Source: Parachlamydiales bacterium
Lineage (GTDB): Bacteria; Chlamydiota; Chlamydiia; Chlamydiales; SM23-39
Assembly: GCA_963800655.1 (NCBI GenBank)
Contig: CAWDBT010000002.1
Coordinates: 641,964 to 705,963, forward strand
Direction: 5' to 3'
Length of the DNA: 64,000 nucleotides
Shown here: in pieces, positions 5,495-62,874 of the stretch
Layout of the letters: each line of letters begins with the position of its first letter
Numbering within the stretch: position 1 is the stretch's first letter
Notes under the pieces: generated by a model
Databases searched by the model: none
The model's input: the letters and a program-made list of their open reading frames with translations, nothing else
Told to the model about the DNA's origin: nothing
Program-made: the position numbers and the translations under genes

Positions 5495-5543
5495 AGAGGG
5501 CGTCTATAAAGAGCGGCTTCGTCGATTTTTGTAGACACCCTCT
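5495..5543. repeat. PAL-A palindromic repeat, full hairpin copy
   Basis: AGAGGGCGTCTATAAAGAGCGGCTTCGTCGATTTTTGTAGACACCCTCT. It has 16-nt imperfect inverted arms, and the last bases overlap the stop codon of the minus-strand gene at 5543. Confidence 0.85.
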
Positions 5544-7027
5544 CAACATTCCAAAGCTCGAGCAATTACAATATTGTGATAGATCACTGTCTGTGCAGTT
5601 GGATCATAATAAAAGATAGGGACATCGAAATTGGAGGCATCTTCTTGGAAAGCTTCTCGAATTTGAGAAAGAACGGTTTCATCGAACACAAATCCTTTTC
5701 TTTTTAAGCTATCTTCGAGGGCGACTACAAACTCTGAAATCATCTGCTCTTTATAACCAATATGACATTTGTACACTTGATCCAATAATTGAGAAGTTCT
5801 TATCGGCACAATGCGGGCTTTTTCTCTCTTGAGTTTTTTGCATGCTTCTTCAATTTTTTGGCACACTTCCCGAGATAAGCCTCGAGAAAATTCAGTTGCG
5901 TCTTTTATTCCTAAATTTTCCAAAATTTTGAAATAATTACAAAAAGGTTCGATTCCCATCGAGGGATCAAACCAGATTCTATTGACCCCTGTTTCATCAA
6001 CCCGCCAAGCAGTTCCGTAATTTGGGTCGAAAATCATCGTCGGATCAGAAGTCGCAAACACCTCTGCATCGATGACCGTAGGCTCGCAGTTGCGAACTAA
6101 GATATTTTCATAATGAAGATCGGAAATACCCAACCTAAGCGCAATTTCGTCTAATAAAACAAGCCTTTGAAAATATTCAAAAAATTTATCCGGATCGGAA
6201 AAAGTGTTTTCTTCTTTCTTATTTTCCAAAAATTCACAGTATCCATATGACCCGTTCCTGTCTGATTTGCAAATCACTTTATAAGTTCCAAATCCCGCCA
6301 CTTTCAGCACGCTATCTGTCGTATCGCAAAGAAGCCTCTCGGGTTCCGTAGAACGCGGTTTATAGACGATTTTACGATGATTATCGAATTCGATCAGGAG
6401 GGGAATTCTTCCGCGATTATGAGTTTCGCTTCCAAGAGGATAAATAGTCTTAATAAAATTATTTGGTCCAATCCCTAGACATTTCAATTCGCCTTTTTGA
6501 AGATCGATTTTAATTCGATCCCGAGCCTCATTTACGAATTCTAAATGGTTTGCGCACACTCTATCCACAAACTTCTCTTTTTCAAGAGCGGAAATATTTG
6601 AAAAACTCGAAACATTTGTTACTCGTCCAGTTAAATAAGGAATTAAATTACAAACATCGGATTCTCTAAGATTTTTTTTCGCAAAAGATTCGGCAATCTT
6701 TAGAATTCGCAGATCTATATCTCTTAGCTTTTGGCAATATCTATTGAATAATTTTTTATCAGAACATCCTATCATACCCTTCAAAATCGCGCCTTCTTCT
6801 TTCCGAATCGATTCTATTTTATTTACAAGATCGGAAGAGGAAAACTCCGAGGATTTTTTTAACAAACAAATAACACGGCACGGGAAATTTACGGCAGAAC
6901 ACAGGATCGAGAAAGAAGAAGCGATCACAGATCTTGCAGAACTCAAAGCTAGGCCAACCCCACAAGAGAGCTCTTTCCCACCAAAAAAATAAGGGCAAAT
7001 TAATCTTGCTGAATGTTCAACTGACAT
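5543..7027 (-). CDS. Stand-alone LanM-type dehydratase/kinase-like (DUF4135-like) domain protein; effector candidate
   Basis: The motif LGISDLHYENILVRNCEPTVIDAEVF matches the DxHxxN catalytic loop plus downstream metal-binding Asp of class II lanthipeptide synthetase dehydratase domains. There is no LanC cyclase part. The gene is AT-rich relative to its flanks. I chose the start at MSVEHS (7027); the ORF is open to 7084. Confidence 0.55.
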   Translation of the reverse strand: MSVEHSARLICPYFFGGKELSCGVGLALSSARSVIASSFSILCSAVNFPCRVICLLKKSSEFSSSDLVNKIESIRKEEGAILKGMIGCSDKKLFNRYCQKLRDIDLRILKIAESFAKKNLRESDVCNLIPYLTGRVTNVSSFSNISALEKEKFVDRVCANHLEFVNEARDRIKIDLQKGELKCLGIGPNNFIKTIYPLGSETHNRGRIPLLIEFDNHRKIVYKPRSTEPERLLCDTTDSVLKVAGFGTYKVICKSDRNGSYGYCEFLENKKEENTFSDPDKFFEYFQRLVLLDEIALRLGISDLHYENILVRNCEPTVIDAEVFATSDPTMIFDPNYGTAWRVDETGVNRIWFDPSMGIEPFCNYFKILENLGIKDATEFSRGLSREVCQKIEEACKKLKREKARIVPIRTSQLLDQVYKCHIGYKEQMISEFVVALEDSLKRKGFVFDETVLSQIREAFQEDASNFDVPIFYYDPTAQTVIYHNIVIARALEC

Positions 7028-7133
7028 ATTAACCCGCGCTGTTAATTTATTATTTATTATAACATTTAAATTAATTATAAACAAAAGATTAAATTAACAC
7101 AAAAACACATGTCGCTTATAGCGAATAACTTGC

Positions 7134-7206
7134 GCTTACAACGAAACCGCTTCAAGAATCGGTCTTGGACTGCGCTAAAGCGGTTCTTGAAGTAGTTTCG
7201 GTATAT
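7134..7206. repeat. PAL-B palindromic repeat, full hairpin copy
   Basis: TTACAACGAAACCGCTTCAAGAATCGG...loop...CGGTTCTTGAAGTAGTTTCGGTATA. The arms are about 25 nt. Confidence 0.85.
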
Positions 7207-7243
7207 TCGAAAATTTCGATGCGATGGGGAACCCCAAAAAGGG

Positions 7244-7909
7244 TCATGCCGGATGGGTCAGCTTTCCATCGGTCAGATGGATTTGCCGATCGGCCATATT
7301 GGCAAACTCAGGGTCATGGGTGACGAGGACAATCGTCGAGGACAGCTCCTTCTTCGCCTTAAATAGAATGTCGATGACCAGCTTGGCATTGGCGGAGTCC
7401 AAAGAACCGGTCGGCTCGTCGGCGAAAATATACTTGGGAGACATGACCAAGGCGCGGGCAATCGCGACCCTTTGCGCTTGTCCCCCCGAGAGCTGCCTCG
7501 GCAAATGGCGGATCTTTTCTTTCAGATCCAATTGCTCCAGCAAGTGGAGCGCGAAATCCCTTTTTTCCTTGGCGCGGTTTTCTCTGCGAGCGGGAAGCAG
7601 GACATTTTCCAATGCGGAAAGCTCGGCGATGAGGTAATGAAATTGGAAGACAAAGCCCGCTTTTCGGTTGCGGAAATCGCAGATCTCTTCGACGCTCATC
7701 TCTTCTATTTTTCTCCCATCGATCTCGATGGAGCCGAAAGAGGGCTTGTCGAGGGTGCTCAATAAGTACAAAAGAGTGCTCTTGCCCGATCCCGATTTCC
7801 CGGTGAGCGCGATGAATTCTCCATTCGCGATCTCCAGATCGATCCCGCTCAATATATCCGCGGGGGGATCTTCGATCCGTTTGCCCGCTTTGATAGCTCG
7901 AATTCCCAT
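7244..7909 (-). CDS. ABC transporter ATP-binding protein (MacB/LolD/DevA type)
   Basis: Walker A GKSGSGKST, signature LSGGQAQRVAIARAL, Walker B IFADEPTGSLD. There is a 1-nt start/stop overlap with the permease gene. Confidence 0.92.
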   Translation of the reverse strand: MGIRAIKAGKRIEDPPADILSGIDLEIANGEFIALTGKSGSGKSTLLYLLSTLDKPSFGSIEIDGRKIEEMSVEEICDFRNRKAGFVFQFHYLIAELSALENVLLPARRENRAKEKRDFALHLLEQLDLKEKIRHLPRQLSGGQAQRVAIARALVMSPKYIFADEPTGSLDSANAKLVIDILFKAKKELSSTIVLVTHDPEFANMADRQIHLTDGKLTHPA

Positions 7910-18044: not shown

Positions 18045-19132
18045 AGTTCGCCTTCCGACAAGTGGGTTGCAATGACATCCGCATTATGGCGCATCATCTC
18101 TAAATAATGGAGATTTTCCCCATCCATTGCATCTCCATAAAGCGGCTCTTCGCAAATGCGCACCGCGAGACCCGTCTCGCGTCCGGCAGAGACGATCTTG
18201 CGGATCGAATCGCGGCTCACATTCGTTTCGGGGAAAATGACGCGGATTCGATGCAGGCGGATATAATCGATGATCCGCTGAATATCGACGGAACTCAATT
18301 GGCCGTCGGGAGCGAGGCCTTCCGGAGCTGCAAAACGCGATCTCCAGTCTTTTTCTTCGGCTTCGGCCAAATAGCTCCTAGTAAAATATTGAAATGCATC
18401 GTGGCTGGTCACAAGATAGCGGCTCTTAGCCGGAACAGCTCTGAGCTTCTCTTTGAGTTCGAAATGCGCTTCCCGCATTTTTTCTATTACGGCAGCAGCC
18501 CTTCCGAGATAAAATTCCCTGCCTTCCGGATCGATCTCCGAGAGCCGCTCCGCGATCGGAAGAGCCCCTTGGCTCCAAAGGGAAATATCCATCCAAACGT
18601 GGGGATCGATCGAGGAGCCTTTATATAGGATGCGCTCCGGAGAGGAGAGGCGGATCCGATCCCCTACGGAAACGGCTTTCTGACTCCCCCGCAGCCACTC
18701 GGATAAACTCGCCCCGTGCTCTAGGCCCAGGCCGTTATAAAAAATGAGATCCGCGCGCTGCAAGACCTCATCGTCTCCCTTGACGAGCTCATAACTATGG
18801 GGATCGAGAGTCCCTTGGATGAGAACCCTCGCCTCGAGGCGATCCCCACCTATCTCGGACGTCAAGTCCCCTATCTGCGCCGTTGTGCAAAGAATTTTTT
18901 TCTTACCGTTCTCCGCCATCCAGCTCCTAATAGCTTCTCTCGAACCAGATCTCGTCCGACATCCCGAAATAATGGCAAATAAAAGAATAAAAACCGCGAG
19001 CGATTTGAAAAACCGATTCCAAATTACGCCCGTCTGGATTCTAGATTTTTTTTGACAAGCCTTCCGCTCGATATTCGATTCAAAAACTCGCAAAACCCAA
19101 TGAAACTTAATTTGTAGATGGTCTCTGAACAT
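18041..19132 (-). CDS. ytgA: Metal-binding periplasmic lipoprotein YtgA (TroA/ZnuA family)
   Basis: Cluster-9 solute-binding fold (DPHSYE, DPHVWMD motifs) and a lipobox-like LFAIISGC. The true start may lie downstream of the ATG at 19132. Confidence 0.87.
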   Translation of the reverse strand: MFRDHLQIKFHWVLRVFESNIERKACQKKSRIQTGVIWNRFFKSLAVFILLFAIISGCRTRSGSREAIRSWMAENGKKKILCTTAQIGDLTSEIGGDRLEARVLIQGTLDPHSYELVKGDDEVLQRADLIFYNGLGLEHGASLSEWLRGSQKAVSVGDRIRLSSPERILYKGSSIDPHVWMDISLWSQGALPIAERLSEIDPEGREFYLGRAAAVIEKMREAHFELKEKLRAVPAKSRYLVTSHDAFQYFTRSYLAEAEEKDWRSRFAAPEGLAPDGQLSSVDIQRIIDYIRLHRIRVIFPETNVSRDSIRKIVSAGRETGLAVRICEEPLYGDAMDGENLHYLEMMRHNADVIATHLSEGEL

Positions 19133-20396: not shown

Positions 20397-21971
20397 ATGT
20401 CGCAACCCGTGACCAAGGAATTTGGGAAATGGAGATCGTTCTTTTGGCCCGTCCATACGTTCGAGCTCAAAAAATTCCTCCCAATGTTCCTGCTGTTTTT
20501 TTTCATTAATTTCAACTACACGATTCTGCGAGATACGAAAGATACGTTGATCGTAACGGCCCCCGGTTCCGGAGCCGAAGCAATCCCCTTCTTGAAAGTA
20601 TGGGGCGTGCTGCCTTTTGCCATCATCTTCATGCTGATCTATTCCAAGCTCAGCAATATTTTGAGCAAGCAAAAGCTGTTCATGTCGACGATCGCCTTTT
20701 TCGGCGTATTTTTCGCTCTGTTCGCGCTCGTATTCTATCCCCTCCGCGAATCTCTCCATCCGATCGCTTTTGCAGACCAACTGCAAGCGATTCTTCCCAA
20801 AGGATTTGGCGGCCTCGTCGCCATTTTCCGCAACTGGACGTACAGCTTGTTCTATATCATGGCCGAATTGTGGGGCAGCGTTGCGATCTCCCTCTTGTTC
20901 TGGGGATTTGCAAACGATACGACAAAGGTTTCCGAATCCAAGCGCTTTTATGCGATTTTCGGACTAGGCGCAAACCTCGCGATGTATCCATCCGGAATGC
21001 TTGATTAAGAAATTCGCCCTGATCCGCGACTCCGTCGCTCCCTGCGCATATCGATGCTTGGGGCGTCACCCTGAACTATACGCTTGACTGCGGTCTGCAT
21101 CGCTTGCGTATGCGTCATGGCGGTATACTGGTGGATCAATAAAGAAGTCTTAACCGATCCTCGCTTCTTCGATCCGAACGAAGTCAAAAAATCGAAGAAA
21201 GACAAGCCCAAAATGGGCTTGATGGAGAGCTTTATTTTCCTCGGAAAATCTCCTTACATCCTTTGCCTTGCGATCCTCGTCATCAGCTACGGCGTTTCCA
21301 TCAACCTCGTAGAAGTGACCTGGAAAGGCCAGTTGAAGGTTCTATATCCGAATTCCAATGACTACCAGAACTTCATGGGAACGTTCTCCATGCTGACCGC
21401 GACGGCGACCATCTTGATGATGCTCTTCGTCGGCGGCAACGTCATCCGCCGATTCGGCTGGGGCGTTGGAGCATTGATCACCCCCGTCGTTCTTCTGGCG
21501 ACTGGAGTCGGTTTCTTCTCCTGCGTGATTTTCCGCGACTCCCTGATGGGCCTCATCGCCATGATGGGAACAAGTCCGCTGATGCTCGCAGTAGTCTTCG
21601 GAACGGTGCAGAACTTCATCAGCAAATCGGCGAAGTATTCGCTCTTCGATCCAACGAAAGAAATGGCTTATATTCCTCTCGACCAGGAATCTAAAGTCAA
21701 AGGAAAAGCAGCGATCGACGTCGTCGGTGCGCGGCTTGGCAAAGCCGGCGGATCTTTGATCCAGCAAGGCCTGCTCCTCACGTTCGGATCGCTCAGCGCG
21801 ATTACGCCTTATATCGCGGTTATCCTGTTCGCCATCATCGGCGCATGGATCATTGCGGCTCGCGCCCTCAGCCGACGCTTTAATGAGCTCAGCGCTCAGA
21901 AAGGATCGCCTGCGGAAGCCTTGGCTGATAAAGCGAAAACATCTACGACTCCAGCAGGAGCCGCTAGCTAA
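20397..21971 (+). pseudogene. ntt: Npt1/NTT-type ADP/ATP translocase with a scrambled stretch of about 27 codons (three +1 shifts, two in-frame stops)
   Basis: ORFs 20397..21008 and 21084..21971 are in the same frame, and together they form a full-length TLC/NTT protein. Between them the conserved reading runs ...GANLAMYPSGML / IKKFALIRDS / LPAHIDAWGVTLNYTL / TAVCIACV..., moving through frames 0, 1, 2 and back to 0. Confidence 0.85.
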
Positions 21972-22031: not shown

Positions 22032-22516
22032 ATTTTGATTCGAAGACCTCTTGCACAAGAGGTCTATTCACTCGCTGGTCAAATAAGAATCTACAAACCT
22101 ATCCCAGCGATGAGCTTCTGTCAATTTTTGGGGTTTTTTCGTCTATTCCGTTCGATCTGTTTTTTGCGAAGCTCGAGAACCAACCGCAAGATCTTCAACG
22201 GAGGTTGCCGAGACGAAGCGAGATGTTCCCCTCCGATCATTTGCCCGAGCAAAATCTGAGCCGCAGCGATAGTTTGAATTCTTTGATCAAATGGATCTTT
22301 AGGCGAACTGTGGAAACGCTCTCGTCCATTCCTCTCTTCCGAAGGCTCTATAGGACGCTTAAAAAAAACACCCATCGCAACCTCTTATTTAAAATTTTTT
22401 CTTACCTAAAAGGCATGGGATCTTAACGTTCTCTTTGAATTAAAATCAATCTTAACAGCTGCGTCTTGCGAATTTCTCAATGACGGCGACGAAAACAACG
22501 AGCCGGCTATACTACT

Positions 22517-22540
22517 TAGAGGGTGTCTACAAAGAGCGGC
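22517..22540 (+). repeat. PAL-A repeat, half copy
   Basis: TAGAGGGTGTCTACAAAGAGCGGC preceded by ACTACTT. It is followed by an unrelated hairpin (GGCTGCGCA...TGCGCAGCC). Confidence 0.75.
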
Positions 22541-22678
22541 TGCGCAGAACTCCTCTTATGCGCAGCCAAACTCGAATCCGGAGAAAAACCAAGATCGAAT
22601 AAAAAATAATTTTAACCCTTATTTTTTTATATTCAATCCGATATAATTTTGCCGAACTTTAACTAACCAGTCATCACA

Positions 22679-24262
22679 ATGACCGTTTCTCCAGCCTCAT
22701 CCCATCCTCTTGCCGGTTATAGATTTTCAAACGGCGACACGCCGCTCCATCACGCGATCGAGACTTCCAATCTGCCCCTCCTCAAAAGGGTGATCGAAGC
22801 CGGATTTCCCTTAGAGGAACGAAATGCTTTCAATCTAACTCCTTTTCAACTGGCGGTCTCTCAAAAAAAAATCGATATGGCCGAGCAAATCGCACGCCAT
22901 CTGATCGAGAGCGAGTTTTCCTTAGAAAACCGCCCTGCGATCGAACAACAGCTAAGCCTTTTTAAACAGCAAAAAAGCTTTTATCAATCGCAAACCCGCC
23001 TATCGGAAACGACGCCTCCTCTCCATCTAGCTGCTGCGGTTGGCGATCTAAAATCCCTCCGAGACGCCTATCCCGCATCGCTGCACATCCCCGATAGAGA
23101 CGGGCGCACCCCTCTCGAATATGCGATCATTTTTGGACAAACCAACGCGGCGGCATTCCTGATCGAACATGGTTTCTCGCCGGATTTAACAGTCGGCCTC
23201 GCCGCTTTGAATCAAAAGGCTTCCCTTTATCTCGCCGCCTTGTTCAATCGGGTCGAAATTTTCAAATCTCTTCTCGATAAAGGACTCGATCCCAATCTGC
23301 CTAACTATGCTGGATGGACGCCGGCTCAATGCTTTGCCGCTTCCTGCGATTCTCTGGAAAGTTTGCTCGCGATCAAAGAGATGGGAGCTTCCCTATCGAC
23401 TCCATCGAACATGTCTCCCGCGGCGATTTTCCTCATCCGACAATTCCCTCCCGCTTCCCTCGTCTCTATGGCAGATGCCGTACTGGCTGGAACAAATGCG
23501 GTCAAACTGGCATTGCTCTATTGCTTTTACTCCCTTGCAAGTCAAGAAAACCCCGGATGGGGAACCTATGGCCTCAACAGTTTGCTCATCCCCGCTTTGG
23601 CGGCGACTTACCTCTTCCAGCAAACGCAAATTTTTTCCCTCTGCCCAGAACATTTGAGGGAGGAAACTAAATCCCACACACACCCAGGGTCGATCGTCTC
23701 GTCGGGAATCAGCTCTTCCGTATCGAGCTTCCTCCTGCCTACCGGCTGGTCGTGGATCTTCGTCGCTCCCGGCGTAAGCACCTATGCGATCGGGCGATCT
23801 TGCCTATCGAAAATCAAAACCGCCTGTTCGCAGATCTTCAATCGCCCGGCAGCCGCTCTCGGAGCGACCGCTTTGCATCTATTCAACGGAGCTGCAGTTG
23901 CAGGAGACGTATACCACGCCTACCGATTCCTAAATTGGGTCCGGACAAACCCATTGATTCAAGCTCCCTACAGGGAAAAACTCCGTTCCGAAACTTGTGA
24001 TTTCAAAGCGGGCGCACCCATCGACGCAGGCATCGTTCAACGCGCCAAATTCTGCGCCGCCCCCCCGGGAGAACACTTCAACGAATGGCTCTACAGCTCT
24101 CATCCGAAAGAATATCTGGCAAAAATTACAGAAACTTTCTCACGCAGCGAGGATGTTGCGGATTGCAAGCCCCTATCGACGATGGCTCTGTCAATCCGGA
24201 TCTTTCCCGCTGGACGGGGAAAAAGTGCGATTCGGATGATTTCGATCTTTGGTCGCAAATGA
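22679..24262 (+). CDS. Ankyrin-repeat protein with C-terminal paired hydrophobic (Inc-like) segments; effector candidate
   Basis: ANK repeats (GDTPLHHAIETSNLPLLKRVIEAGFPLE; PPLHLAAAVGDLKSL; DGRTPLEYAIIFGQTNAAAFLIEHG). Then two TM pairs with short loops (AVLAGTNAVKLALLYCFYSLA-SQENPGWGTYG-LNSLLIPALAATYLF). Confidence 0.85.
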   Translation: MTVSPASSHPLAGYRFSNGDTPLHHAIETSNLPLLKRVIEAGFPLEERNAFNLTPFQLAVSQKKIDMAEQIARHLIESEFSLENRPAIEQQLSLFKQQKSFYQSQTRLSETTPPLHLAAAVGDLKSLRDAYPASLHIPDRDGRTPLEYAIIFGQTNAAAFLIEHGFSPDLTVGLAALNQKASLYLAALFNRVEIFKSLLDKGLDPNLPNYAGWTPAQCFAASCDSLESLLAIKEMGASLSTPSNMSPAAIFLIRQFPPASLVSMADAVLAGTNAVKLALLYCFYSLASQENPGWGTYGLNSLLIPALAATYLFQQTQIFSLCPEHLREETKSHTHPGSIVSSGISSSVSSFLLPTGWSWIFVAPGVSTYAIGRSCLSKIKTACSQIFNRPAAALGATALHLFNGAAVAGDVYHAYRFLNWVRTNPLIQAPYREKLRSETCDFKAGAPIDAGIVQRAKFCAAPPGEHFNEWLYSSHPKEYLAKITETFSRSEDVADCKPLSTMALSIRIFPAGRGKSAIRMISIFGRK

Positions 24263-29164: not shown

Positions 29165-29177
29165 ATTCGTTTTTTAT

Positions 29178-29250: not shown

Positions 29251-29315
29251 TTCGCTCCTTTCATCGATCCTCTAGTCGCCGCTGCTACGTGGCGCGAGTC
29301 AAATCGACAAAGCTT

Positions 29316-29338
29316 CTCTTTGTAGATATCCTCTAAAA
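29316..29338 (-). repeat. PAL-A repeat, half copy (inverted orientation)
   Basis: The reverse complement TTTTAGAGGATATCTACAAAGAG matches the PAL-A arm. It lies between the tRNA and the first island gene. Confidence 0.7.
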
Positions 29339-30049
29339 CTAAACACCTTCTTGCACATATTCAGAAATTAAAAACTCATAATTAGCTGGTTCTATGCCGT
29401 TAAACGGATGAAAACAAAAATGTTTTGCCCGTTTACTCGATCCAATCCAGAATTCAGCTCCCAAATGACCGAACGCATTTTGCTGTGGCAAGGCCGCATG
29501 TGGAAGGATCTCACTCCCGGCATTTTCCTGAATCAACTCGTGATTCAGCGCCCGAATATGAGATGAAGTCGCCCACCAATACGTCCCGCTATAGTGAGGC
29601 CAATGGCCTAAAAATGTAGCTTCGCGATATAAAACTCCGGCCGTATCATAGCCTTCTTTGAGTTTGGCGACACACTTTTCCCATTGGTAAAGAACATGAT
29701 AGTCCATCATCATCCGCCAAAGTTCGGAAATATACGACTGGCGCCACACTCCTTTCGAATGAAAATAACAAATGTAAGCGTCTGTTTTCTGGGCAAATTC
29801 CAACAAAATTCGCATCGTATTTTTCTCTCTAAGAGATATATCAGAAAATCCGCAAACTTGAATTTTATCATATTTCGATACTAATTTCTGGAGCCACTCG
29901 AAATCCTCAGGTCTCTCATACCCCACACCAAGAAATAGAGAATCGGATTGATCGTAGAGACCTGAAATAAATACTTTTGTAAGCTGATCTTGGATTCTAA
30001 ACTTAAAATCATTCGTCAAAAATACGTGATAAAAAACAGCTATTTTCAC
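29339..30049 (-). CDS. Island paralog A of an uncharacterised ~235-aa family (putative glycan-modifying enzyme)
   Basis: Shares the N-terminus MKIAVFYHVFLTNDFKFRIQDQLTK and the motif HWPHYSGTYWWATSSHIRALN with the genes at 30238 and 31098. The start is set at the GTG giving MKIAVFYHV. The gene is AT-rich. Confidence 0.7.
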   Translation of the reverse strand: MKIAVFYHVFLTNDFKFRIQDQLTKVFISGLYDQSDSLFLGVGYERPEDFEWLQKLVSKYDKIQVCGFSDISLREKNTMRILLEFAQKTDAYICYFHSKGVWRQSYISELWRMMMDYHVLYQWEKCVAKLKEGYDTAGVLYREATFLGHWPHYSGTYWWATSSHIRALNHELIQENAGSEILPHAALPQQNAFGHLGAEFWIGSSKRAKHFCFHPFNGIEPANYEFLISEYVQEGV

Positions 30050-30237
30050 AACCACCTTTTTATAAAAAAATTAAATTAATAAACCATTTTTTTAGATTTT
30101 TATTATCGCAAGCAACGAGATATTTCTAATATTGCACCTCTTGCGATTACAAAAAACAATCATCTTTCGCATAGAAAAAATTCGATTTTTGAAAATACAA
30201 AAAAACAACATTAAATCACTAAAAAGATATATTGAAA

Positions 30238-40287: not shown

Positions 40288-40356
40288 CTATGCCGAAACT
40301 ACTTAGAGGGTGTCTACAAAGAGAAACTTCAGTCGTTTTTGGTAGACATCCTCTCA
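40288..40356. repeat. Chimeric repeat: PAL-B 5' fragment fused to a full PAL-A hairpin
   Basis: CTATGCCGAAACTACTT + AGAGGGTGTCTACAAAGAGAAACTTCAGTCGTTTTTGGTAGACATCCTCT. The last bases form the stop codon of ftsI. Confidence 0.85.
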
Positions 40357-42348
40357 CTCATTCCATTTCTGATAGAGCTGTTTGAGCGCCTGCGTTTCCG
40401 CCATCCAATCCGCTTTTTCGCTATCGCGGCGCGGATCTCCCGGAGGATATCCGTACGGATCATCCGGCTGCACTCCGAGATATTGCAGCGAACGGGTGGC
40501 GATTTCCCTAAATACCGGAGAGGCGCATACGCCCCCGAGTTGCTGCTTGCCGACTCCCGGGACAAACCTGACCTCGGGATCATCGATAGAAACCATAAGG
40601 ACGAACCGCGGGTTCTTGGCCGGCGCAAATCCCAGAAACGAAGAGATATGATGCTGCTTGGAATAGGTTCCGGCAATGATTTTTTCAGAAGTGCCGGATT
40701 TTCCCGCTTCGGTATATCCCATGATATCGGCTCGTTTCGACGAACCGCCTTCTTTCGTGACGAACTTCAATCCGCGAACCACCGGCTCCACAATCGACGG
40801 ACTGAGGACCTGTTTGGCTGTGATGGGGGTTTTCGTTCGATCGAAAATCACTTCCTGAGAGCCGTTCTGATGTCGACGGGCAATTTTTCGAACGAGGTGA
40901 GGCTGAACCATCTTCCCTCCATTCGCAAATACCCCATAGGCGCGCACCATCTGGATGCTGTTGATTAGCACATTGTGGCCGATCGCAAGGGAATAAGGGG
41001 TCGGAACAGACCATTCGAGTTTGCCGTTCGGGTGGAGCTTGCCCGGAGTTGGAATGAGCCCTGGATTTTCGGCGGGCAGTTCGATCATCGTCTTTTGCCC
41101 GAATCCGAAGATTTGCTCCAACGCATTCCGATACCACTTCTCTCCCATCGCTTCGATGAGCCTCTGCATGAGCCGCGCCATGTAGACGTTGGAGGATTTC
41201 TGAAGCCCTAAATACATGTTGAGATAGCGATGGGTTCTGCCGTCTTTCAAAGGAGAACTGCGCCCCGGAAACCAGCCGTTGGAAGTGGGAATTTTTTCAT
41301 CGGGGGAAAAAATCGGCTTTTTTTTCGCCGCGATCAACTCTTCATTCGCCTTGAGGCAAAGGGCGACTGTGATGGACTTGAAAATCGAACCGGGCTCGAA
41401 ACAATCGCTCACCGCTTTGACACGGGTATGCTCTTGAAGGCTCGGATCATTGAAATAATCGGGATAGCGGCTCAGGTGAAACGGCGGGTATTGGGCGAGA
41501 GCCAGGATCTCTCCGTTCGAAGGATCCATCATGACGGCCCATCCCCCTTTCGCCTTGACGGCTTTCACCCCTTTTTCCAATTCGGTTTCCGCGATCGCCT
41601 GCAAGTAATGGTTCACGGTGAGATAGATATCCGCTCCGTTTTCCGGTTCTTCGAGAACCGTTCCGGTGTCCAGAGGATGGCTCGGAGAGCGAGTGATCAG
41701 CCTTTTGCCCCTTTTTCCCTTGAGATAATGGTTGAACAGCATCTCCAGGCCGCCGGTCGGCAAACTCTGAAACGTATGGGGATCTTTTTCCTCTTGAACG
41801 GTATGGAGCACCGAGCCGAGCAACCCCCCGAACGGATAGGAACGCTTGTAATCGGAAAGGAAAAACAAAGCGTTCCGAACGATCTTCTCTTTTGCGGCAA
41901 ATGCGCTCCACCAAGACGAGATCTGATCTTTCATCTCGCGGTCGAGCCACATGGAAATCTTGCGGCTGCGGCTCTTGCGCCCGATTTCCGCTTTGATCTT
42001 CGCCTTTTTTTCCTTGTCGGCTTTCAACAGTTTGGCAAGTTGCTCTGCGATGGGATCTTTCAGCTCATTTGGAATGGAATCGGGATCCGCGTAGAGATGG
42101 AACTTCGGCACATCGATCGCAAAGGGCTGCTCGTCTTCGGGATGGCCGGGTTGAATCGAGGTATTGGAATAAAACGATCCGCGCATAAACGGCTCGTAAA
42201 CGATCGTCTGGTGCTGGGAAAGCGCGGTTCTAGTCCATTTCTCCCCTTCGACGATCTGAATATAGTAAAAACGGGCGATGAGCGCGGCGAACATGCCTGA
42301 AAGAACGGCGGCGATGCATGCGAGCCGCTTGCGATTACCAGAGTTCAT
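40354..42348 (-). CDS. ftsI: Penicillin-binding protein 3 / FtsI (class B transpeptidase)
   Basis: N-terminal anchor and dimerisation domain, plus the transpeptidase motifs S-x-x-K (SIFK), SSN and KSG(T). Confidence 0.93.
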   Translation of the reverse strand: MNSGNRKRLACIAAVLSGMFAALIARFYYIQIVEGEKWTRTALSQHQTIVYEPFMRGSFYSNTSIQPGHPEDEQPFAIDVPKFHLYADPDSIPNELKDPIAEQLAKLLKADKEKKAKIKAEIGRKSRSRKISMWLDREMKDQISSWWSAFAAKEKIVRNALFFLSDYKRSYPFGGLLGSVLHTVQEEKDPHTFQSLPTGGLEMLFNHYLKGKRGKRLITRSPSHPLDTGTVLEEPENGADIYLTVNHYLQAIAETELEKGVKAVKAKGGWAVMMDPSNGEILALAQYPPFHLSRYPDYFNDPSLQEHTRVKAVSDCFEPGSIFKSITVALCLKANEELIAAKKKPIFSPDEKIPTSNGWFPGRSSPLKDGRTHRYLNMYLGLQKSSNVYMARLMQRLIEAMGEKWYRNALEQIFGFGQKTMIELPAENPGLIPTPGKLHPNGKLEWSVPTPYSLAIGHNVLINSIQMVRAYGVFANGGKMVQPHLVRKIARRHQNGSQEVIFDRTKTPITAKQVLSPSIVEPVVRGLKFVTKEGGSSKRADIMGYTEAGKSGTSEKIIAGTYSKQHHISSFLGFAPAKNPRFVLMVSIDDPEVRFVPGVGKQQLGGVCASPVFREIATRSLQYLGVQPDDPYGYPPGDPRRDSEKADWMAETQALKQLYQKWNE

Positions 42349-44435: not shown

Positions 44436-44882
44436 ATGGATGCGCATCCAGTCACAATCGACAACCTCGGGATCGACGCTTCCCGCACCTATGCCAAAAA
44501 CCAGGAATTGCTCGATAAAAATCTTCGGGCCGATTCGCTATCGATTTCAAAAAAAACTGAAATTTCAGTCATATCGCCTTATCTGGCAGAAGGAGAAGAT
44601 CGGCAGTTTGCCGTCGGCGTCGCTCAGGGATGGGTCGTTTTCTCGCTGCCTAAAAACTACGGGATCGACGTAGCGAGGCTATTCACTTATCAGTTAGCTC
44701 CTTCTTTGGGCTCCCAGGAAGAAGAGGAAGCCATTATAGAATCCCTCTCCTTGCTAGAGGGATTGAATCCCCTTGAAGAAGTAGAGAGAAAAAAAATCCT
44801 CTCATGCTTAAAAATGCTAAAGGAATTGCGCAAGCTCATGGAGCAAATCATTGGGCGCTGCAATCAATTCCATAGGGGCTGA
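44436..44882 (+). CDS. Hypothetical 148-aa protein translationally coupled to a TPR chaperone gene
   Basis: Good ORF whose TGA overlaps the ATG of the next gene (TGATG). I recognised no family. Confidence 0.6.
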   Translation: MDAHPVTIDNLGIDASRTYAKNQELLDKNLRADSLSISKKTEISVISPYLAEGEDRQFAVGVAQGWVVFSLPKNYGIDVARLFTYQLAPSLGSQEEEEAIIESLSLLEGLNPLEEVERKKILSCLKMLKELRKLMEQIIGRCNQFHRG

Positions 44883-45274
44883 TGATGGATTGGAAAGACG
44901 TGCTGGGTTGGAATGAAAGAGAAATAGAAGATGTCCGCCTTTTAGGAGCTTCCTATCTCCGCCAAGGCGTTTATGACACAGCTCTCGTCATGTTCGAGGC
45001 GCTCGCCGCAATCGATCCTGCCAATCCTTACGACCTACAAACGCTCGGAGCTTTGCATCTGCAGCAAGGCGAAGGGATGAAAGCCCTCGATTATTTGGAT
45101 CGCGCGCTAAAACTCGATCCGACCGACGCGAAAATCAAACTCAATCGAGCCAAAGCCTTATTCATGCTGGGTTATCGCAGGCAAGGCTTACTGGAAGCGA
45201 GAGAACTGCAAAGCGCGCAAGACGCGGAAGTCGCCTCTCAGGCAAGCGCCCTGATCCTCGCCTACAGCTCTTAG
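44882..45274 (+). CDS. Small all-TPR protein, T3SS class II / YscY-like chaperone candidate
   Basis: 130 aa made of three TPR-like helical pairs (LGASYLRQGVYDTALVMFEALAAIDPANPYDLQTLGALHLQQGEGMKALDYLDRALKLDPTDAKIKLNRAKALFMLG). Confidence 0.6.
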   Translation: MMDWKDVLGWNEREIEDVRLLGASYLRQGVYDTALVMFEALAAIDPANPYDLQTLGALHLQQGEGMKALDYLDRALKLDPTDAKIKLNRAKALFMLGYRRQGLLEARELQSAQDAEVASQASALILAYSS

Positions 45275-45344
45275 AAGCTGTCCTACGAGATCCATTATAT
45301 AAGGCTCTTCGATTCTTTGGGTTGTTTTGGCCGCTCGCAGTATA

Positions 45345-45375
45345 AGAGTGTGTCTGCAAATTGCAGACACACTCT
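45345..45375. repeat. PAL-A-related perfect palindrome
   Basis: AGAGTGTGTCTGCAA-A-TTGCAGACACACTCT. Confidence 0.75.
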
Positions 45376-45654
45376 AAATCCGGACGAAATGCCGCAGCGC
45401 GACGAACTCAAATTCAGATTGATCCGATCGAAAACTCTTGCTACATTGCTCAAAGGCGCAATCCATGCTATACTCCGCCTCTTACCCGAATGCAGCAGTT
45501 TTGAGGAGTTGGAGCGAATGCGAGAATTCCCGCTCTCTGCCGGCTTTAAAAAAGCTGGTAGGCGATGCATATCTATTTGAAGTCGCTGGATTTTTGCAAA
45601 CTGGCATCGGGGCGCATGATTCTATAAATAGCAACATGTCACAGATCGGGCTTT

Positions 45655-46992
45655 ATGCTTGAATGCGAAGTAAAAAACGGCTGGCCTCAGTTTCTCGAAT
45701 TCATTCAAACGCGCTGTTCGCGCGCGGAGTTTGAAAATTGGATCGCTCCGATTCGGCTCATCTCTTCGGATTCGGAAGAGATCTCATTGGAAACGCCGAA
45801 TATTTTCGTCCAGGAATATTTGCTCGAAAATTACAAGGAATTGCTCCGCGATTTCGTCCCGATGCGACCAAACGGAGAACTCGCGATCTCATTTTCGATT
45901 TCGGCGGCCCCCAAGCCCCAACCTCCCGCGCAAACCTCCTGCCAAAACGAATCATCCGGCGCCGCGACCAGCCCCTCGCTGAAACTCAATCCCCTTTACC
46001 GATTCGAAACGTTCATCGAAGGAACCTCGAATCAATTCGTCAAATCGGCCTCGATGGGCGTCGCCTCGCGGCCGGGGAAAACTTATAATCCCCTATTCAT
46101 CCACGGCGGCGTCGGCCTTGGGAAAACACATCTTCTGCACGGCATCGGCCACTATGTGCGCGAAAATCATCGAAAACTGAAGATCCAGGCGATCACCACT
46201 GAAGGGTTTATCAACGAGATCGTCGATGGGCTGCGCAATAAATCGATCGATCAGATGAAGCGCTTCTATAGGACATTGGACCTTCTGCTCGTCGACGATA
46301 TCCAATTCCTGCAGAATCGGGGAAATTTCGAGGAAGAATTCTGCAATACGTTCGAAACCCTGATCCATCAAAACAAACAGATTGTGATCACAAGCGATAA
46401 ACCGCCCTCCCAGCTCAAATTATCCGAAAGGATCATCGCCCGGATGGAATGGGGACTCGTCGCGCAGATGGGCGTTCCCGATCTCGAAACCCGCGTCGCG
46501 ATCATCAAACATAAAGCGGAATCGAGAGAGCTTTCTCTTTCGAACGACGTCGCATTTTTTATCGCGGAGCACGTCTGCAATAATATCCGCCAGCTCGAAG
46601 GCGCGATCAACCGCCTTTGCGCCTATGCGCGTTTCCAGGGGACGCAGCTCGACATCGCCTGCGCGGAAAAGATTTTAAACGAGCTGATGCAAAGTTCGCC
46701 TCCAAAGCGCATCTCCGTCGATTCCATTTTGCAAAGTATCGCCTCCGTCTTCCAAGTGAGATTGGGAGACTTGAAAGGAGATTCGCGCCAAAAAGAGATC
46801 GCCCTCGCTAGACAAGCCGCTATGTATCTGGCCAAGGAGATGATCGACGAATCGCTTTCCAAAATCGCATCGTCGTTTGGGGGAAAAACGCATTCGACCC
46901 TCCTCCACTCATGGAAAAAAATCTCCGAAGAAATCCTGGAAAACGATGTTTTGCGCCGCCAGATCCAAATGGCTCGCAAAAGCATCGAATAG
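45655..46992 (+). CDS. dnaA: Chromosomal replication initiator DnaA
   Basis: AAA+ core ([26 protein letters not shown]) and the C-terminal DNA-binding domain ([14 protein letters not shown]...[20 protein letters not shown]). Confidence 0.95.
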
Positions 46993-53319: not shown

Positions 53320-53362
53320 GCGGTTTATACCGAAACTACTTCAAGAATCGGTTTCGGTATAG
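53320..53362 (+). repeat. PAL-B repeat, short form
   Basis: GCGGTTTATACCGAAACTACTTCAAGAATCGGTTTCGGTATA. The left arm is shared with the copy at 55185, and it folds as a 10-bp hairpin. Confidence 0.8.
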
Positions 53363-55184: not shown

Positions 55185-55262
55185 GCGCCTTTATACCGAA
55201 ACTGTTTCAAGAATCGGTTTCCGTCAACGCAACAACCGGTTCTTGAAACAGTTTCGGTATTT
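55185..55262. repeat. PAL-B repeat, full hairpin copy
   Basis: GCGCCTTTATACCGAAACTGTTTCAAGAATCGGTT...AACCGGTTCTTGAAACAGTTTCGGTAT. The arms are about 27 nt and nearly perfect. Confidence 0.88.
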
Positions 55263-59108: not shown

Positions 59109-60218
59109 ATGCTCCAGAGAATTTGGTCTCTTGTCATCAAAGAGCTGCTCATCGTCTGGAAAAATCCCAAGACGCGCATCATGCTCGTTCTGCCTCCGAT
59201 CGTCCAGCTCCTCATCTTTACTTTTGCAGCGACATTGGACGTCAAAAACGTCTCGATCGGCGTTCTCAATCGCGACAATGGAAAAGAAGCTTTCGAACTC
59301 GTCGAGCGATTCAAAGGATCTCCCACTTTCACCCGGATCTCCCATCTATCCGCCGTCGAGGAAATCGCCCCGTTCATCGACAATCAGCGAGGAATCATGG
59401 TCGTCTCGATCGACGAAACATTTTCGCGCAAGCTCAACCAAAACCAAACAGCGGAAGTCCAGATCATCTGCGACGGGCGCAAATCGAACGCAGCTCAAAT
59501 CGTCTTCGGATACGCAAATGACATCCTGGCTCGCTTCAATGCCGATTTTTGCAAGACAGCTTCCATTCCGCAAGAAAACGCCCAGCTCTTCATCCGAAAT
59601 TGGTACAATCCCAATCTCCTTTATTTCTGGTACAACGTCCCCTGCCTCGTGGCCACCTTGGCGATGATCACCTGCTTGATCGTCACCTCCTCGTCCGTCT
59701 CGAAAGAGAGGGAATTCGGCACGTTCGATCAACTCTTGGTCTCCCCTCTTCTCCCCGTGGAAATCCTAGCGGGAAAAATCATCCCCGGCCTCATTATCGG
59801 TTTGATCGAGGGATCCATCATCCTCCTGGTCGGAATTGCGATCTTCCAGGTTCCTTTCACCGGTTCGTGGCTGCTTTTTTACTTCAGCCTGTTCGTCTTC
59901 GTCCTTTCCATCAGCGGAGTCGGCCTTTTCATCTCCTCTTTTTGCGCCACCCAGCAGCAGGCCATCCTTGGGACATTCGTCTTCATCACCCCATCCGTCC
60001 TCCTCGCCGGATTCGCCACTCCGATTGAAAATATGCCCGAATGGCTTCAGCCGACCACCTATCTGATTCCTCTCCGCTACATGCTGGTGATTTCCAAAGG
60101 ATTATTCTTGAAAGCAATGCCGCCCTCGATCGTCTTGAAACAAATCTGGCCGATGGCCGTCATCGCCCTATTCAACTTGATCGGAGCATCCCTATTTTTC
60201 CGCAGGAGGCTTGGATGA
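59109..60218 (+). CDS. ABC-2 permease (YbhR-like)
   Basis: Paralogous to the preceding permease, with the same topology. Confidence 0.85.
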   Translation: MLQRIWSLVIKELLIVWKNPKTRIMLVLPPIVQLLIFTFAATLDVKNVSIGVLNRDNGKEAFELVERFKGSPTFTRISHLSAVEEIAPFIDNQRGIMVVSIDETFSRKLNQNQTAEVQIICDGRKSNAAQIVFGYANDILARFNADFCKTASIPQENAQLFIRNWYNPNLLYFWYNVPCLVATLAMITCLIVTSSSVSKEREFGTFDQLLVSPLLPVEILAGKIIPGLIIGLIEGSIILLVGIAIFQVPFTGSWLLFYFSLFVFVLSISGVGLFISSFCATQQQAILGTFVFITPSVLLAGFATPIENMPEWLQPTTYLIPLRYMLVISKGLFLKAMPPSIVLKQIWPMAVIALFNLIGASLFFRRRLG

Positions 60219-61666
60219 TGAAACGATGCATTTTTCTCTGCTGCGCCCTCATCGGAGGATGCATGGTGGGCCCCAATTACGAGGCTCCCGACGTCGCTAT
60301 CGCCGATGACTGGCAAAACCCCGATGCCCCTTCTTCGATTTCCGAAGAGCCTCCTGCATCTAAATGGTGGGAGCTCTTCGAAGATCCCCTCCTTTGCAAA
60401 TACATCGATCGAGCGGCTCAAGCCAACGAGCAGATCCTCGCCGCTGAAGCGCGCATCTGCGAAGCCAGAGCCATGCGCCAAGTCGCCGCATCCGCGCTTT
60501 TTCCCCAAGTCAGCGCCGATCTCAACGCTATGAAGACCTATTTTAGTAAAAACGGCCCTGTCTATTCTGCAACTCCCGGACAGATGTCCTCTTCGACAAA
60601 CATCCTCCCATTCAACGTGCAGGCTCCGCAGATTCAAAATCTCTTCAATGCTCTCTTCGACGCTTCTTGGGAAATCGACCTGTTTGGAAAAACCCGACGC
60701 GCTGTCGAGGGAGCCTCTGCCGTCGCGGATCGCGCGATCGATGAAAAGAATGACATCCTGCTAAGCGTATTTGCGGAATTGGCCCGCAATTACCTCGAAC
60801 TGTGCAGCGCCCGCAAACAAACCTCTCTCGTCGAAACGAATCTGGCCCTATTGGAAAAAACGGCATTTCTCATCAAAGAGCGCCTCAAATACGGCTATTC
60901 CAATCAGCTCGACCTCGACCGCGTCGAAGCGGAACTCTCCTCTCTCAAGAGCCAGCTGCCCGAACTCTACGCCATCGCATATCGCAATACCTATGCGATC
61001 GCCGTGCTGACCGGATCGATGCCGGAAACCCTCGTCGATGAACTCGCCTCCGTCAAAGAACTTCCGCGCCTTCCCAGTTCAATCGCGATCGGCCTTAAAT
61101 CCGATCTCCTCCGCCGCCGCCCCGATGTTCGCGCCGCCGAACGAACGCTCGCCGCTGCAACCGCTTACATCGGCGTCGCCGTCGCTTCCTTTTATCCATC
61201 TTTCGTCATGAGCGGAGGCGCGGGATTCCAATCCTTGCAACTCAAAGACCTCTTCCAATCCTCCAGTAAAACTTGGGCCTATGGGGGTAACTTTAACATC
61301 CCCGTATTCGAAGGGGGAAAGCTCGTCGGCTATCTCGAAGCCGCTAGAGCCTCTGCCTGCGCAGCAGCCCATACCTACCAACAAACCATTCTCTCGGCGC
61401 TGCAAGATGCCGAAACTGCTCTGGCGCTATTTACCGAAGCGCGCGCGTCTTCGTCCAATCTCAGCGAAAGCGCATCTCAATACCGCCACTTGGCCTGGCT
61501 ATCTCAAATCCGGCATCAAAAAGGACTCGTCGGCCTTCTCGACGTTCTCGACAGCGACCGCCAATTCGTCCGCTCTCAAATCGACCTCCTCGCTTCCGAT
61601 ACCAAAGCATTCATCGACCTCATCGCACTGTACAAATCTCTCGGGGGAGGATGGGAAGTTTTTTAG
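60215..61666 (+). CDS. NodT-family outer-membrane efflux lipoprotein
   Basis: Lipobox MMKRCIFLCCALIGGC followed by MVGPNYEAPD. It has OMF repeats throughout. The start is re-assigned from 60041 (ATGATG overlap with the ybhR-like stop). Confidence 0.88.
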   Translation: MMKRCIFLCCALIGGCMVGPNYEAPDVAIADDWQNPDAPSSISEEPPASKWWELFEDPLLCKYIDRAAQANEQILAAEARICEARAMRQVAASALFPQVSADLNAMKTYFSKNGPVYSATPGQMSSSTNILPFNVQAPQIQNLFNALFDASWEIDLFGKTRRAVEGASAVADRAIDEKNDILLSVFAELARNYLELCSARKQTSLVETNLALLEKTAFLIKERLKYGYSNQLDLDRVEAELSSLKSQLPELYAIAYRNTYAIAVLTGSMPETLVDELASVKELPRLPSSIAIGLKSDLLRRRPDVRAAERTLAAATAYIGVAVASFYPSFVMSGGAGFQSLQLKDLFQSSSKTWAYGGNFNIPVFEGGKLVGYLEAARASACAAAHTYQQTILSALQDAETALALFTEARASSSNLSESASQYRHLAWLSQIRHQKGLVGLLDVLDSDRQFVRSQIDLLASDTKAFIDLIALYKSLGGGWEVF

Positions 61667-61680
61667 AGGGTGTCTACCAG
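61664..61680 (+). repeat. PAL-A repeat, half copy
   Basis: TAGAGGGTGTCTACCAG. The TAG is the stop codon of the OMF gene. Confidence 0.65.
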
Positions 61681-61811
61681 TACCCAACCCGCCAAAACTT
61701 TCAAGGCCGAGCACTAGTTCAAAAAATTATTTAATAACAAACAACCGCAAAAACCATTGAAAACAATCTCATAAAATACACATCATTTTTTTCAAAAAAA
61801 ATTCCAGGCTT

Positions 61812-62015
61812 ATGGACGTCTCAACTCCTTCTTTTTCTCCTGTTTTATTTCACAAATATACGATCGACAAAAGCTACCGCATCAAGACATTTCGAAACGG
61901 GAAAGAAGAATCGATCGGCGATCCCGAGCGGATAGATCAGATGCTCTCCGGCGACTTTTTTCTCTGGATCCATCAGTTTTACGCGAGATCGAAAACATTT
62001 CGGCTTTTTACATAA
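61812..62015 (+). CDS. Doubtful small hypothetical protein (67 aa)
   Basis: ATG ORF in an otherwise empty 400-nt gap. The SD is weak and I recognised no family. Confidence 0.3.
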   Translation: MDVSTPSFSPVLFHKYTIDKSYRIKTFRNGKEESIGDPERIDQMLSGDFFLWIHQFYARSKTFRLFT

Positions 62016-62208
62016 GCTGATCTTTATCGTCCAACTGATTCATTCGCTTCTATTTAGGAGAAAAAATGCCGACGTCAGTTTATGCCATGCAGCCATCGTA
62101 CTTCGCAGCGCCTCGCCGACAGAAGCTTTTCCCCATCCATTCCTGCTCGCCCATGCGGATCGCCCCGGCATCTTCACCGAAATAGACGATGCGCTCGCAG
62201 GTAAAAAC

Positions 62209-62814
62209 GTGACGGAACTCGTCCTCTATCGCCCTATTTCCAGCGATCTTCGCAAAGAGATCTGCGACACCGCAGAAAAAACAGCTCTCTATACGAAAGA
62301 CGCGAAAACAAAAACCCCCTTCTCCTACCTCGACATCTTCCTCTCGCCGCTGCGCAATTCGAAACATCGCGTCTGCGCTCGATCCCCGCATTTTCAACAC
62401 CCCTCTTCCGATCTCATCGAGAAAACGGCCCGCCTCGTCGCCGATGCTATATTGGGCAATGAGATCCTTTCGAAAAAAGGCTCTCCCAAGCCGCTGTTTT
62501 GCAGCCCTTATGTCGCTTCGATCCTCCAATCGAGCCTCTTTTTGCAAGCGCTCAAATCCCTAGATCCTTCCGATGTGGAAGCCTTCAAATTCTCTACAAA
62601 TGGATTTCCCAACCGGATCGCCCTCATCGAGAAAATCGCAGGGGCTTTCAAGGCATCTGCCCCTAAAGGCCCAGTCGAACAACTCCTGCACAAAACCTAC
62701 TGGGATTCGACGCGAATTGGGAAGCTCGTCCGGCGGGATGTGCAATCCATCATGTCTTCTTACCTCGCCAAAAACCTCGACAAACTCTCGGAAAGATCCG
62801 CTGTTGCGACTTGA
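62209..62814 (+). CDS. Hypothetical protein, N-terminus unresolved (possible frameshift)
   Basis: The frame is open upstream to about 61936 without an ATG. A strong AGGAG-N7-ATG at 62066 is in a different frame and stops at about 62185. Confidence 0.5.
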   Translation: MTELVLYRPISSDLRKEICDTAEKTALYTKDAKTKTPFSYLDIFLSPLRNSKHRVCARSPHFQHPSSDLIEKTARLVADAILGNEILSKKGSPKPLFCSPYVASILQSSLFLQALKSLDPSDVEAFKFSTNGFPNRIALIEKIAGAFKASAPKGPVEQLLHKTYWDSTRIGKLVRRDVQSIMSSYLAKNLDKLSERSAVAT

Positions 62815-62831
62815 TTATAATTGTTTCGAAG

Positions 62832-62874
62832 TAAGAGGGTGTCTACAAAGAGCGGCTTTGTAGACGCCCTCTAA
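62832..62874. repeat. PAL-A repeat, full hairpin copy
   Basis: TAAGAGGGTGTCTACAAAGAGCGGCTTTGTAGACGCCCTCTAA. Confidence 0.88.

Follow-up and report, generated by a model that had tools for sequence, protein, structure and literature searches.

What are the short palindromes that recur across a 64,000-nucleotide stretch of the genome of a Parachlamydiales bacterium (GenBank assembly GCA_963800655.1, contig CAWDBT010000002.1, positions 641,964 to 705,963; hereafter the window), and how did they come to lie between and at the ends of its genes? This dispersed family, termed PAL-A, very likely consists of the shrunken remains of non-autonomous MITEs (miniature inverted-repeat transposable elements) that carry the ends of ISPsy19-like insertion sequences (ISs) of the IS5 family. 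The repeat is ordinary selfish DNA in an unusual host, an element of a known kind whose IS end was already known.

PAL-A copies and the identity of their ends

A search of both strands of the window for the 17-mer AGAGGGTGTCTACAAAG, allowing up to three mismatches, finds 11 arms where 100 dinucleotide shuffles lead one to expect 0.08, no single shuffle holding more than two. These arms make up eight PAL-A elements, the number given in a first-pass annotation of the window, each of which begins GAGGGTGTCTACAAAG and finishes with its reverse complement, the single arms keeping the left end only. The sequences of the full hairpins reported at 5495-5543, 40304-40356 and 62832-62874, and of the related palindrome at 45345-45375, are as they had been described, and the reported single arms are real, with their outer ends at 22519, 29333 (minus strand), 53106 and 61666, the first of these also having a degenerate right end. 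Two weaker look-alikes proposed near 20221 and 29025 had to be set aside; they have only TNAGAGGG in common with the family, a pattern that occurs 13 times against seven expected and belongs to true copies in seven of the 13 cases. A profile of the full-length family described below adds three decayed fragments (Table 1). With eight clear copies and three fragments, a size of 29-48 bp and no coding content, the family has the size, coding character and copy number of a MITE, and its copies are intergenic or lie at gene ends, as had been observed at the outset. The copies at 40306 and 45346 are also present in a public assembly made independently from a wastewater run (L115; 9,933 bp, 99.96% identical) and are therefore not assembly artefacts.

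The ends of these elements are those of a described IS type. ISPsy19 is an IS5-family element of 1178 nt with a perfect 17-nt terminal repeat, GAGGGTGTAGACAAAAT, and a 3-nt target duplication (Bardaji et al., PMC3189936). A related element of 1189 bp in a member of the Porticoccaceae (L102, 168-1356) has the ends GAGGGTGTTTACAAAA and GAGGGTGTCTACAAAA, is flanked by a TTA duplication, and contains a single open reading frame (ORF) with DUF4096 (2.6e-23) and DDE_Tnp_1 (5.7e-22) domains, which matches the NCBIfam model transpos_IS5_3 (NF033580, IS5 family transposase) at 2.5e-59, with 201 bits against a cut-off of 110. The closest named relative of this transposase is that of ISPsy19, at 62% protein identity. 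The PAL-A end agrees with the right end of L102 at 15 of 16 positions and with the ISPsy19 repeat at 14 of 16, so that the arm is part of a known annotated IS end, the very outcome that the first-pass annotation had named as fatal to an independent repeat family. ISPsy19-like copies on plasmids of Pseudomonas savastanoi and Halomonas have the ends GAGGGTGTAGACAAAA and GAGGGTGTTTACATAA with TNA flanks, and a metagenome scan with a three-sequence transposase alignment as query, which returned 80 loci, yielded about 65 further full copies of 1173-1214 bp with the ends GAGGGTGT(TT/AG/CT)ACAAA and the flanks CTNA...TNAG. Because these full copies share both ends and flanks, the PAL-A arm can be identified as the terminal inverted repeat (TIR) of this IS type. 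One of the ISPsy19-like elements (L165, 55-1234) has a GC content of 59% within a 41% GC flank that resembles a restriction-modification pair by its ORF translations alone, a contrast that suggests recent transfer into a low-GC host.

The target sites tell the same story, the TNA duplications around PAL-A having the length and the consensus (C-TNA-G) of those of the parent IS. Within the window the duplication is perfect at the copies beginning at 5496, 22519, 45346 and 62835. Unlike the parent IS, PAL-A elements have no coding capacity and are not autonomous.

These properties bear on two other origins. Palindromic operator sites for a DNA-binding regulator, or hairpins arisen by chance, would owe nothing to mobile DNA, and the 14-17-bp half-sites are as perfectly symmetric as those of an operator; however, the copies lie at the 3' ends of genes and not at promoters, target duplications flank them, their ends match those of ISs, they are distributed across phyla with variable interiors, and the shuffles exclude chance hairpins, which together make this explanation hardly credible. 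An origin as repetitive extragenic palindromic (REP) sequences or bacterial interspersed mosaic elements (BIMEs), moved by a REP-associated tyrosine transposase (RAYT) of the IS200/IS605-like Y1 type, is extremely improbable. The window copies are indeed REP-like in being 29-48 bp long, palindromic and extragenic, but they have 3-bp TNA duplications where REPs have none, they end exactly as DDE IS5-family elements do, longer parent forms of 165-180 bp exist, and they begin with GAGG in place of the GTAG/CGTC head that one account gives for REP families (PMC3733652). Of the likenesses drawn initially, those to a dispersed palindromic family of mobile origin and to MITEs have stood, while those to REP/BIME and enterobacterial repetitive intergenic consensus (ERIC) sequences, and with them the expectation of a RAYT, have given way. 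The TNA duplications and the IS5-family TIR indicate that the cognate enzyme would be an IS5-family DDE transposase.

The window contains no IS5, Y1 or OrfB transposase that could be found, as the first-pass annotation had also stated for a cognate transposase, the best similarity to Y1 having an E value of 0.065 over 19 aa. A tblastn search with the L102 transposase against the window and the at least 114 loci of the genome scan described below matched only L102 itself. One interval, 61666-62871, has a left PAL-A end next to TTA on one side and a right PAL-A end next to TAA on the other, 1206 bp apart, the length of an autonomous ISPsy19-type IS. Protein and DNA profiles show no transposase similarity in it, and a 201-aa ORF within it (62209..62814) has no homologue among 5.8 billion proteins and no family match; the two ends may bound an IS that has decayed completely or a cassette, or may face each other by coincidence.

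Full-length elements and the derivation of the window copies

Longer forms of PAL-A were found by scanning one genome per species with the pattern AGAGGGYGTCTACAAAR, which gave at least 114 loci, for a 17-mer expected by estimate to have about 280 chance matches in the 596 Gb. Many single 17-mer matches outside the Planctomycetota-Verrucomicrobiota-Chlamydiota (PVC) group are chance or coding occurrences rather than elements, an example being an EF-G motif in Verrucomicrobia (L057, L061, L109). MITE-type arms occur at 67 of the at least 114 loci, from at least some 25-30 PVC assemblies (about 28 by a hand count of record titles), most of them labelled Chlamydiota, with 16 gammaproteobacterial loci in addition among the matches listed. 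Among the same listed matches, inverted pairs of AGAGGGTGTCTACAAAG bound near-perfect palindromes of 163-182 bp in many metagenome-assembled genomes (MAGs) of Chlamydiota, at least six MAGs carrying several copies per genome. When the element is bounded as GAGGG ... CCCTC, the three bases outside it are equal on both sides, and in about 40 of the 51 pairs listed they read TAA/TAA, TTA/TTA, TGA/TGA or TCA/TCA; they are a 3-bp TNA target-site duplication. A logo of the target around 165 arms has C, T and A at positions -4, -3 and -1 respectively, giving the target C-TNA-G. Literature searches for descriptions of MITEs or IS5 elements in Chlamydiae/Chlamydiota returned nothing relevant, which is consistent with the earlier remark that no described equivalent was known in the phylum, yet the elements are widespread in chlamydial MAGs.

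By their interiors, the chlamydial MITEs form at least three subfamilies, the commonest of which, subfamily 1, is about 172 bp long and folds as a hairpin of 58 pairs, 11 of them with compensatory changes. Minimal TIR-TIR forms of 27-32 bp occur in other chlamydial MAGs (L012, L016, L110). The subfamily-1 MITE had no match in the plasmid collection, chlamydial plasmids being included in the question. One subfamily-1 MITE with a TTA/TTA duplication, in Chlamydiales MAG SMAG_U15640 (L018, 2612-4048), is broken by an insert of about 1.27 kb with frameshifted group II intron reverse-transcriptase/maturase ORFs (YADD motif), which looks like an intron homed into the MITE hairpin. A MITE of 141 bp with the same ends (GAGGGTGTCTACAAAA / GAGGGTGTTTACAAAA) and TNA duplications, often placed on a stop codon, is found in Halomonadaceae and Pseudomonas (Ectopseudomonas), at L009, L031, L033, L054, L070, L072, L088, L103 and other loci.

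Alignment with 13 full-length members shows the window copies to be derived from the long form: they match subfamily 1 only over 21-37 nt from the outer tip of the left arm and over the final 4-14 nt of the right end. A profile search, which recovered the same coordinates, found nothing in these copies that significantly matches positions about 40-135, inside the long element. A private variant, AAAGAGCGGCT, is common to three window copies whose internal deletions have different end points, and the junction of the 5496 copy falls at a TTTG direct repeat. From these features, the window copies appear to have collapsed in place by deletion across the palindrome rather than to have transposed as tiny elements.

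The history suggested by these comparisons would begin with a DDE transposase (DUF4096 plus DDE_Tnp_1) that recognises a TIR of about 16 bp, GAGGGTGT(NN)ACAAA(R), and inserts the element at C-TNA-G, duplicating TNA. Non-coding derivatives of about 165-180 bp, folding as long hairpins, may have spread in this way in Chlamydiota and some other PVC bacteria, mobilised in trans, and in this genome copies would then have lost their centres through deletion between short direct repeats within the palindrome. Such a collapse would leave hairpins of 29-48 bp or single arms, with the TNA duplication still flanking. The window copies, with no transposase nearby, are now most likely immobile fossils.

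Table 1. Positions, flanks, folding and surroundings of PAL-A copies and fragments in the window
Position	Strand	Element	Flanks	Hairpin	Surroundings
5496..5542	+	Collapsed MITE, 47 bp; left arm of ~35 nt and last 12 nt of right end	TCA 5493-5495 / TCA 5543-5545	-27.6 kcal/mol, z -6.1	Right TCA is the TGA stop of the minus-strand DUF4135 (LanM-like) gene 5543..7084
19067..19125	-	Strongly decayed subfamily-1 arm, tentative assignment from weak similarity; TIR-like GAGACCATCTACAAAT, then subterminal sequence	TCA before TIR-like sequence		Upstream of a ZnuA-type gene or within the 5' end of its ORF call
22086..22157	+	Decayed left-arm fragment; partial TIR TCTACAAA, subterminal positions ~16-60 of subfamily-1 MITE			Downstream of split ATP/ADP translocase gene
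22519..22555	+	Collapsed copy, 37 bp; perfect left TIR, degenerate right end (..CTCCTC)	TTA 22516-22518 / TTA 22556-22558		Upstream of ankyrin-repeat gene 22679..24262
29301..29333	-	Single left arm, 33 nt; TIR and subterminal GAGAAGCTTTGTCGATTT	TAA 29334-29336		tRNA-Arg (29177-29251) on one side, stop of ORF 29339..30055 on the other
40306..40353	+	Collapsed MITE, 48 bp	TTA 40303-40305 / TCA 40354-40356		Between ftsI and murE; minus-strand ftsI (40354..42348) stops at the right TCA, read as TGA
45302..45334	+	Interior (subterminal) subfamily-1 arm fragment without TIR			Directly left of the 29-bp palindrome
45346..45374	+	Minimal TIR-TIR palindrome, 29 bp; variant ends GAGTGTGTCTGCAAA in both arms	TAA 45343-45345 / TAA 45375-45377	-24.1 kcal/mol, z -8.3	Spacer upstream of dnaA
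53106..53130	+	Single left TIR arm GAGGGCGTCTACAAAA	AAA, no TNA		Between tamB start and glyoxalase/VOC gene
61666..61681	+	Single left TIR GAGGGTGTCTACCAGT	TTA 61663-61665		TAG stop of OEP/NodT gene 60041..61666 is flank TA plus first G of the element
62835..62871	+	Collapsed MITE, 37 bp (TIR, AGCGG, TIR)	TAA 62832-62834 / TAA 62872-62874	-29.4 kcal/mol, z -9.1	

Two neighbouring loci deserve mention in their own right. The ATP/ADP translocase (TLC) gene near the 22086 fragment is split into ORF 20397..21008, which covers profile positions 5-200, and ORF 21084..21971, which covers 227-491, the region 20397-21971 being either a pseudogene or the product of a sequencing error. Directly after tRNA-Arg(CCT) and the PAL-A arm beside it, three tandem paralogous genes occupy 29339-31801 in units of about 870 bp, with a best-matching 300-nt core that is 84-85% identical; the one of the three that was scanned (29339..30055) had no Pfam or NCBIfam match.

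Insertion sites, stop codons and present function

Evidence of insertion comes from the junction between ftsI and murE. In three relatives (L120, L121, L122) the ftsI stop overlaps the murE start (e.g., GAATGAAG), the junction reading ...TGGAACGAATGAAGCTC..., while the window's FtsI has the same final residues (WNE*) as theirs and murE starts 94 nt later. Read from ftsI to murE, the interval consists of the TGA stop, the 48-bp PAL-A copy and the second TNA, after which come 14 nt from the end of another repeat family and a ribosome-binding region, AAAGG, that is new, so that a filled site in the window stands against an empty one in L120, L121 and L122. A further relative carries an autotransporter gene (892 aa) between ftsI and murE (L118, 12300-14978), which means that this junction has suffered more than one break in the group. 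An IS200/IS605 pair (Y1_Tnp plus OrfB/TnpB) near the dcw cluster of a relative (L122 14324-15976, and L123) is unrelated to PAL-A.

PAL-A had initially been described as concentrated at the borders of accessory DNA, which is true of part of the copies only: those at 40306 and 45346 lie within the mraZ-ftsI-murE / dnaA block, which is conserved and shares its synteny with relatives, the former inside a conserved operon and the latter upstream of dnaA, neither at an accessory edge.

The fragment that adjoins the 40306 copy (40288-40304) belongs to a second palindromic repeat family, PAL-B, whose other copies lie at 7135-7205, 53324-53361 and 55190-55260. Two of its copies are complete (about 70 bp), one is internally deleted, and the fourth is this end fragment abutting PAL-A at ftsI/murE. 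Its ends read TATACCGAAACT(A/G)(C/T)TTCAAGAA(T/C)CGGTT ... AACCG(A/G)TTCTTGAA..GTTTCGGTATA, and the TA at both tips invites the guess that it is a TA-duplicating (IS630/mariner-like) MITE. PAL-B was not found in any of the 203 loci retrieved.

Three window copies touch stop codons in the ORF map, at 5543-5545, 40354-40356 and 61664-61666. The first-pass annotation had identified these overlaps correctly but had credited the repeat with supplying the stop bases; at 5543 and 40354 these are host bases of the duplicated target and not part of the element. To measure the bias more widely, empty sites were reconstructed and ORFs of at least 100 aa called, the gene calls being crude. Across all elements, the target coincides exactly with a stop codon in 15 of 51 cases, against a background of 4.9% of non-coding TNA sites (p=1.3e-8), and in PVC-type loci together with the window a stop codon overlaps the target by at least 2 nt in 12 of 37 (background 5.4%, p=3e-7), while none of 10 full-length IS copies with adequate flanks shows such a coincidence (background 9.2%, p=1.0). 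The excess is real but approximate. Since any TNA reads as a stop on one of the two strands and its duplication puts the stop back, an insertion exactly on a stop codon leaves the protein unchanged, and survival of harmless insertions would explain the bias better than targeting by the transposase.

Whether the short hairpins have since acquired a function is a separate matter. They might have been exapted and selected as REP-like structures at gene ends, serving in protection of mRNA 3' ends, in attenuation or decoupling (ftsI-murE), or as bidirectional terminators between convergent genes. Four copies fold very stably (-17 to -29 kcal/mol, z -3.9 to -9.1), the majority lie directly after stop codons, the long subfamily hairpin has been kept by its compensatory changes at 11 of 58 pairs, and the 45346 copy has the same two substitutions in both arms. 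None of the hairpins, however, is followed by a T/U tract, the sequences after them being TAAGGAAAA, TCAACATT, TAAATCCG and similar, and a terminator scan of 39500-46000 calls neither the 40306 nor the 45346 copy; in half of the copies, which are single arms or carry a degenerate partner arm, the fold is not significant (z -0.2 to -2.0), which argues against selection for structure; the ftsI/murE site is empty in relatives; and the hairpins have no Rfam match, tRNA-Arg being the only hit of an Rfam search of the window. Exaptation is, on this balance, quite unlikely. A broader proposal, in which ISPsy19-type miniature elements use stop codons as a safe harbour in the compact, operon-rich genomes of the obligate intracellular Chlamydiota and could so settle even where genes are translationally coupled, as ftsI and murE are, the collapsed hairpins perhaps being retained in a REP-like role, is doubtful, though if the bias did reflect active targeting or exaptation in place of survivorship, it would represent a previously undescribed insertion strategy and a source of regulatory hairpins in the phylum.

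Several observations weigh against the derivation of PAL-A from collapsed ISPsy19-type MITEs, or narrow what it covers. The target duplication is imperfect at 40306 (TTA/TCA) and absent at 53106 (AAA), and the two copies of 47 and 48 bp are nearly alike in architecture, so that the short form itself may have transposed. No chlamydial autonomous element with PAL-A ends was found in the window, in about 50 PVC-type 8-kb loci or in the 80 metagenome loci, whose transposases are all at least 60% identical and whose elements, of 50-70% GC, are of GC-rich proteobacterial types, none chlamydial-looking; it is for this reason that mobilisation inside Chlamydiota is something we infer. At ftsI/murE the nearest relatives, which by their names and synteny would belong to Parachlamydiales, have only 73% FtsI identity, which makes the comparison evidence of insertion at the level of lineages rather than of strains, and only one public run shares window sequence (5% of words), its contigs barely covering the window. 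Lastly, the stop-codon excess rests on the crude ORF calls and falls to 3 of 26 PVC-type loci (background 3.9%, p=0.08) if only perfect duplications that coincide exactly with a stop are counted, and some of the gammaproteobacterial stop-codon cases may be orthologous and hence non-independent.

Significance and comparison with known systems

With PAL-A traced to MITEs of this kind, a conspicuous repeat in an environmental chlamydial genome is explained as transposon debris and need not be misread as a new regulatory or REP system. One IS5-type end recurs nearly unchanged across Gammaproteobacteria and many MAGs of Chlamydiota and Verrucomicrobiota, which bears on gene flow among co-habiting bacteria, and the signature GAGGGTGTCTACAAAG ... 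TNA can be used for repeat masking, for spotting assembly breaks and for dating insertions in chlamydial MAGs. The excess at stop codons is a small observation on how miniature elements persist in compact genomes. What is mildly surprising comes down to this bias and to an end sequence conserved across phyla.

REP/BIME, ERIC and Correia (NEMIS) elements resemble PAL-A as short, dispersed, hairpin-forming extragenic repeats that are often co-transcribed at gene ends, but none has its ends: REPs lack duplications and depend on a RAYT, ERIC sequences are about 127 bp long and enterobacterial, and Correia elements duplicate TA and have other ends. Tourist-type MITEs of the PIF/Harbinger group, whose transposases are related to those of IS5, share with PAL-A a 3-bp TNA-type duplication (TAA/TTA), short terminal repeats and the character of hairpin miniatures of an IS5-like DDE transposon; they differ in being eukaryotic and in having no sequence similarity to it. 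The proposed collapse has its counterpart in the nearly precise excision of Tn10, in which slippage between short direct repeats in the inverted IS10 ends leaves a palindromic remnant of about 50 bp. There too a long inverted repeat becomes a short palindrome that keeps its outer ends and the target duplication, and the TTTG repeat at the 5496 copy may be compared with those repeats, although the Tn10 process concerns a composite transposon and was shown experimentally in E. coli, while that of PAL-A is read from sequence comparison.

A close parallel is MITEPsy1, a 100-nt MITE of P. syringae pv. phaseolicola thought to be derived from the IS5-family ISPsy2, which, like PAL-A, is a non-autonomous miniature IS5-family derivative with matching terminal repeats and presumed mobilisation in trans, but which has the ends GGAAGGTCTGAAAAAGCC, a 4-nt CTAG/YTAA duplication and experimentally demonstrated transposition (PMC3189936), PAL-A being known from sequence alone. 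Also close are the ISPsy19-like ISs of P. syringae, with relatives in Halomonas, Porticoccaceae and many metagenomes. These differ from PAL-A in being 1.17-1.21 kb long, GC-rich and equipped with a DUF4096+DDE_Tnp_1 transposase, where PAL-A is non-coding, measures 29-48 bp per copy (about 170 bp in the parent forms) and lies in a PVC/Chlamydiota genome in whose accessible sequence no such gene was found; the two have in common a near-identical TIR (GAGGGTGTCTACAAAG in PAL-A, compared with GAGGGTGTAGACAAAAT in ISPsy19 and with GAGGGTGTCTACAAAA, the right end of L102), a 3-bp duplication and the target C-TNA-G.

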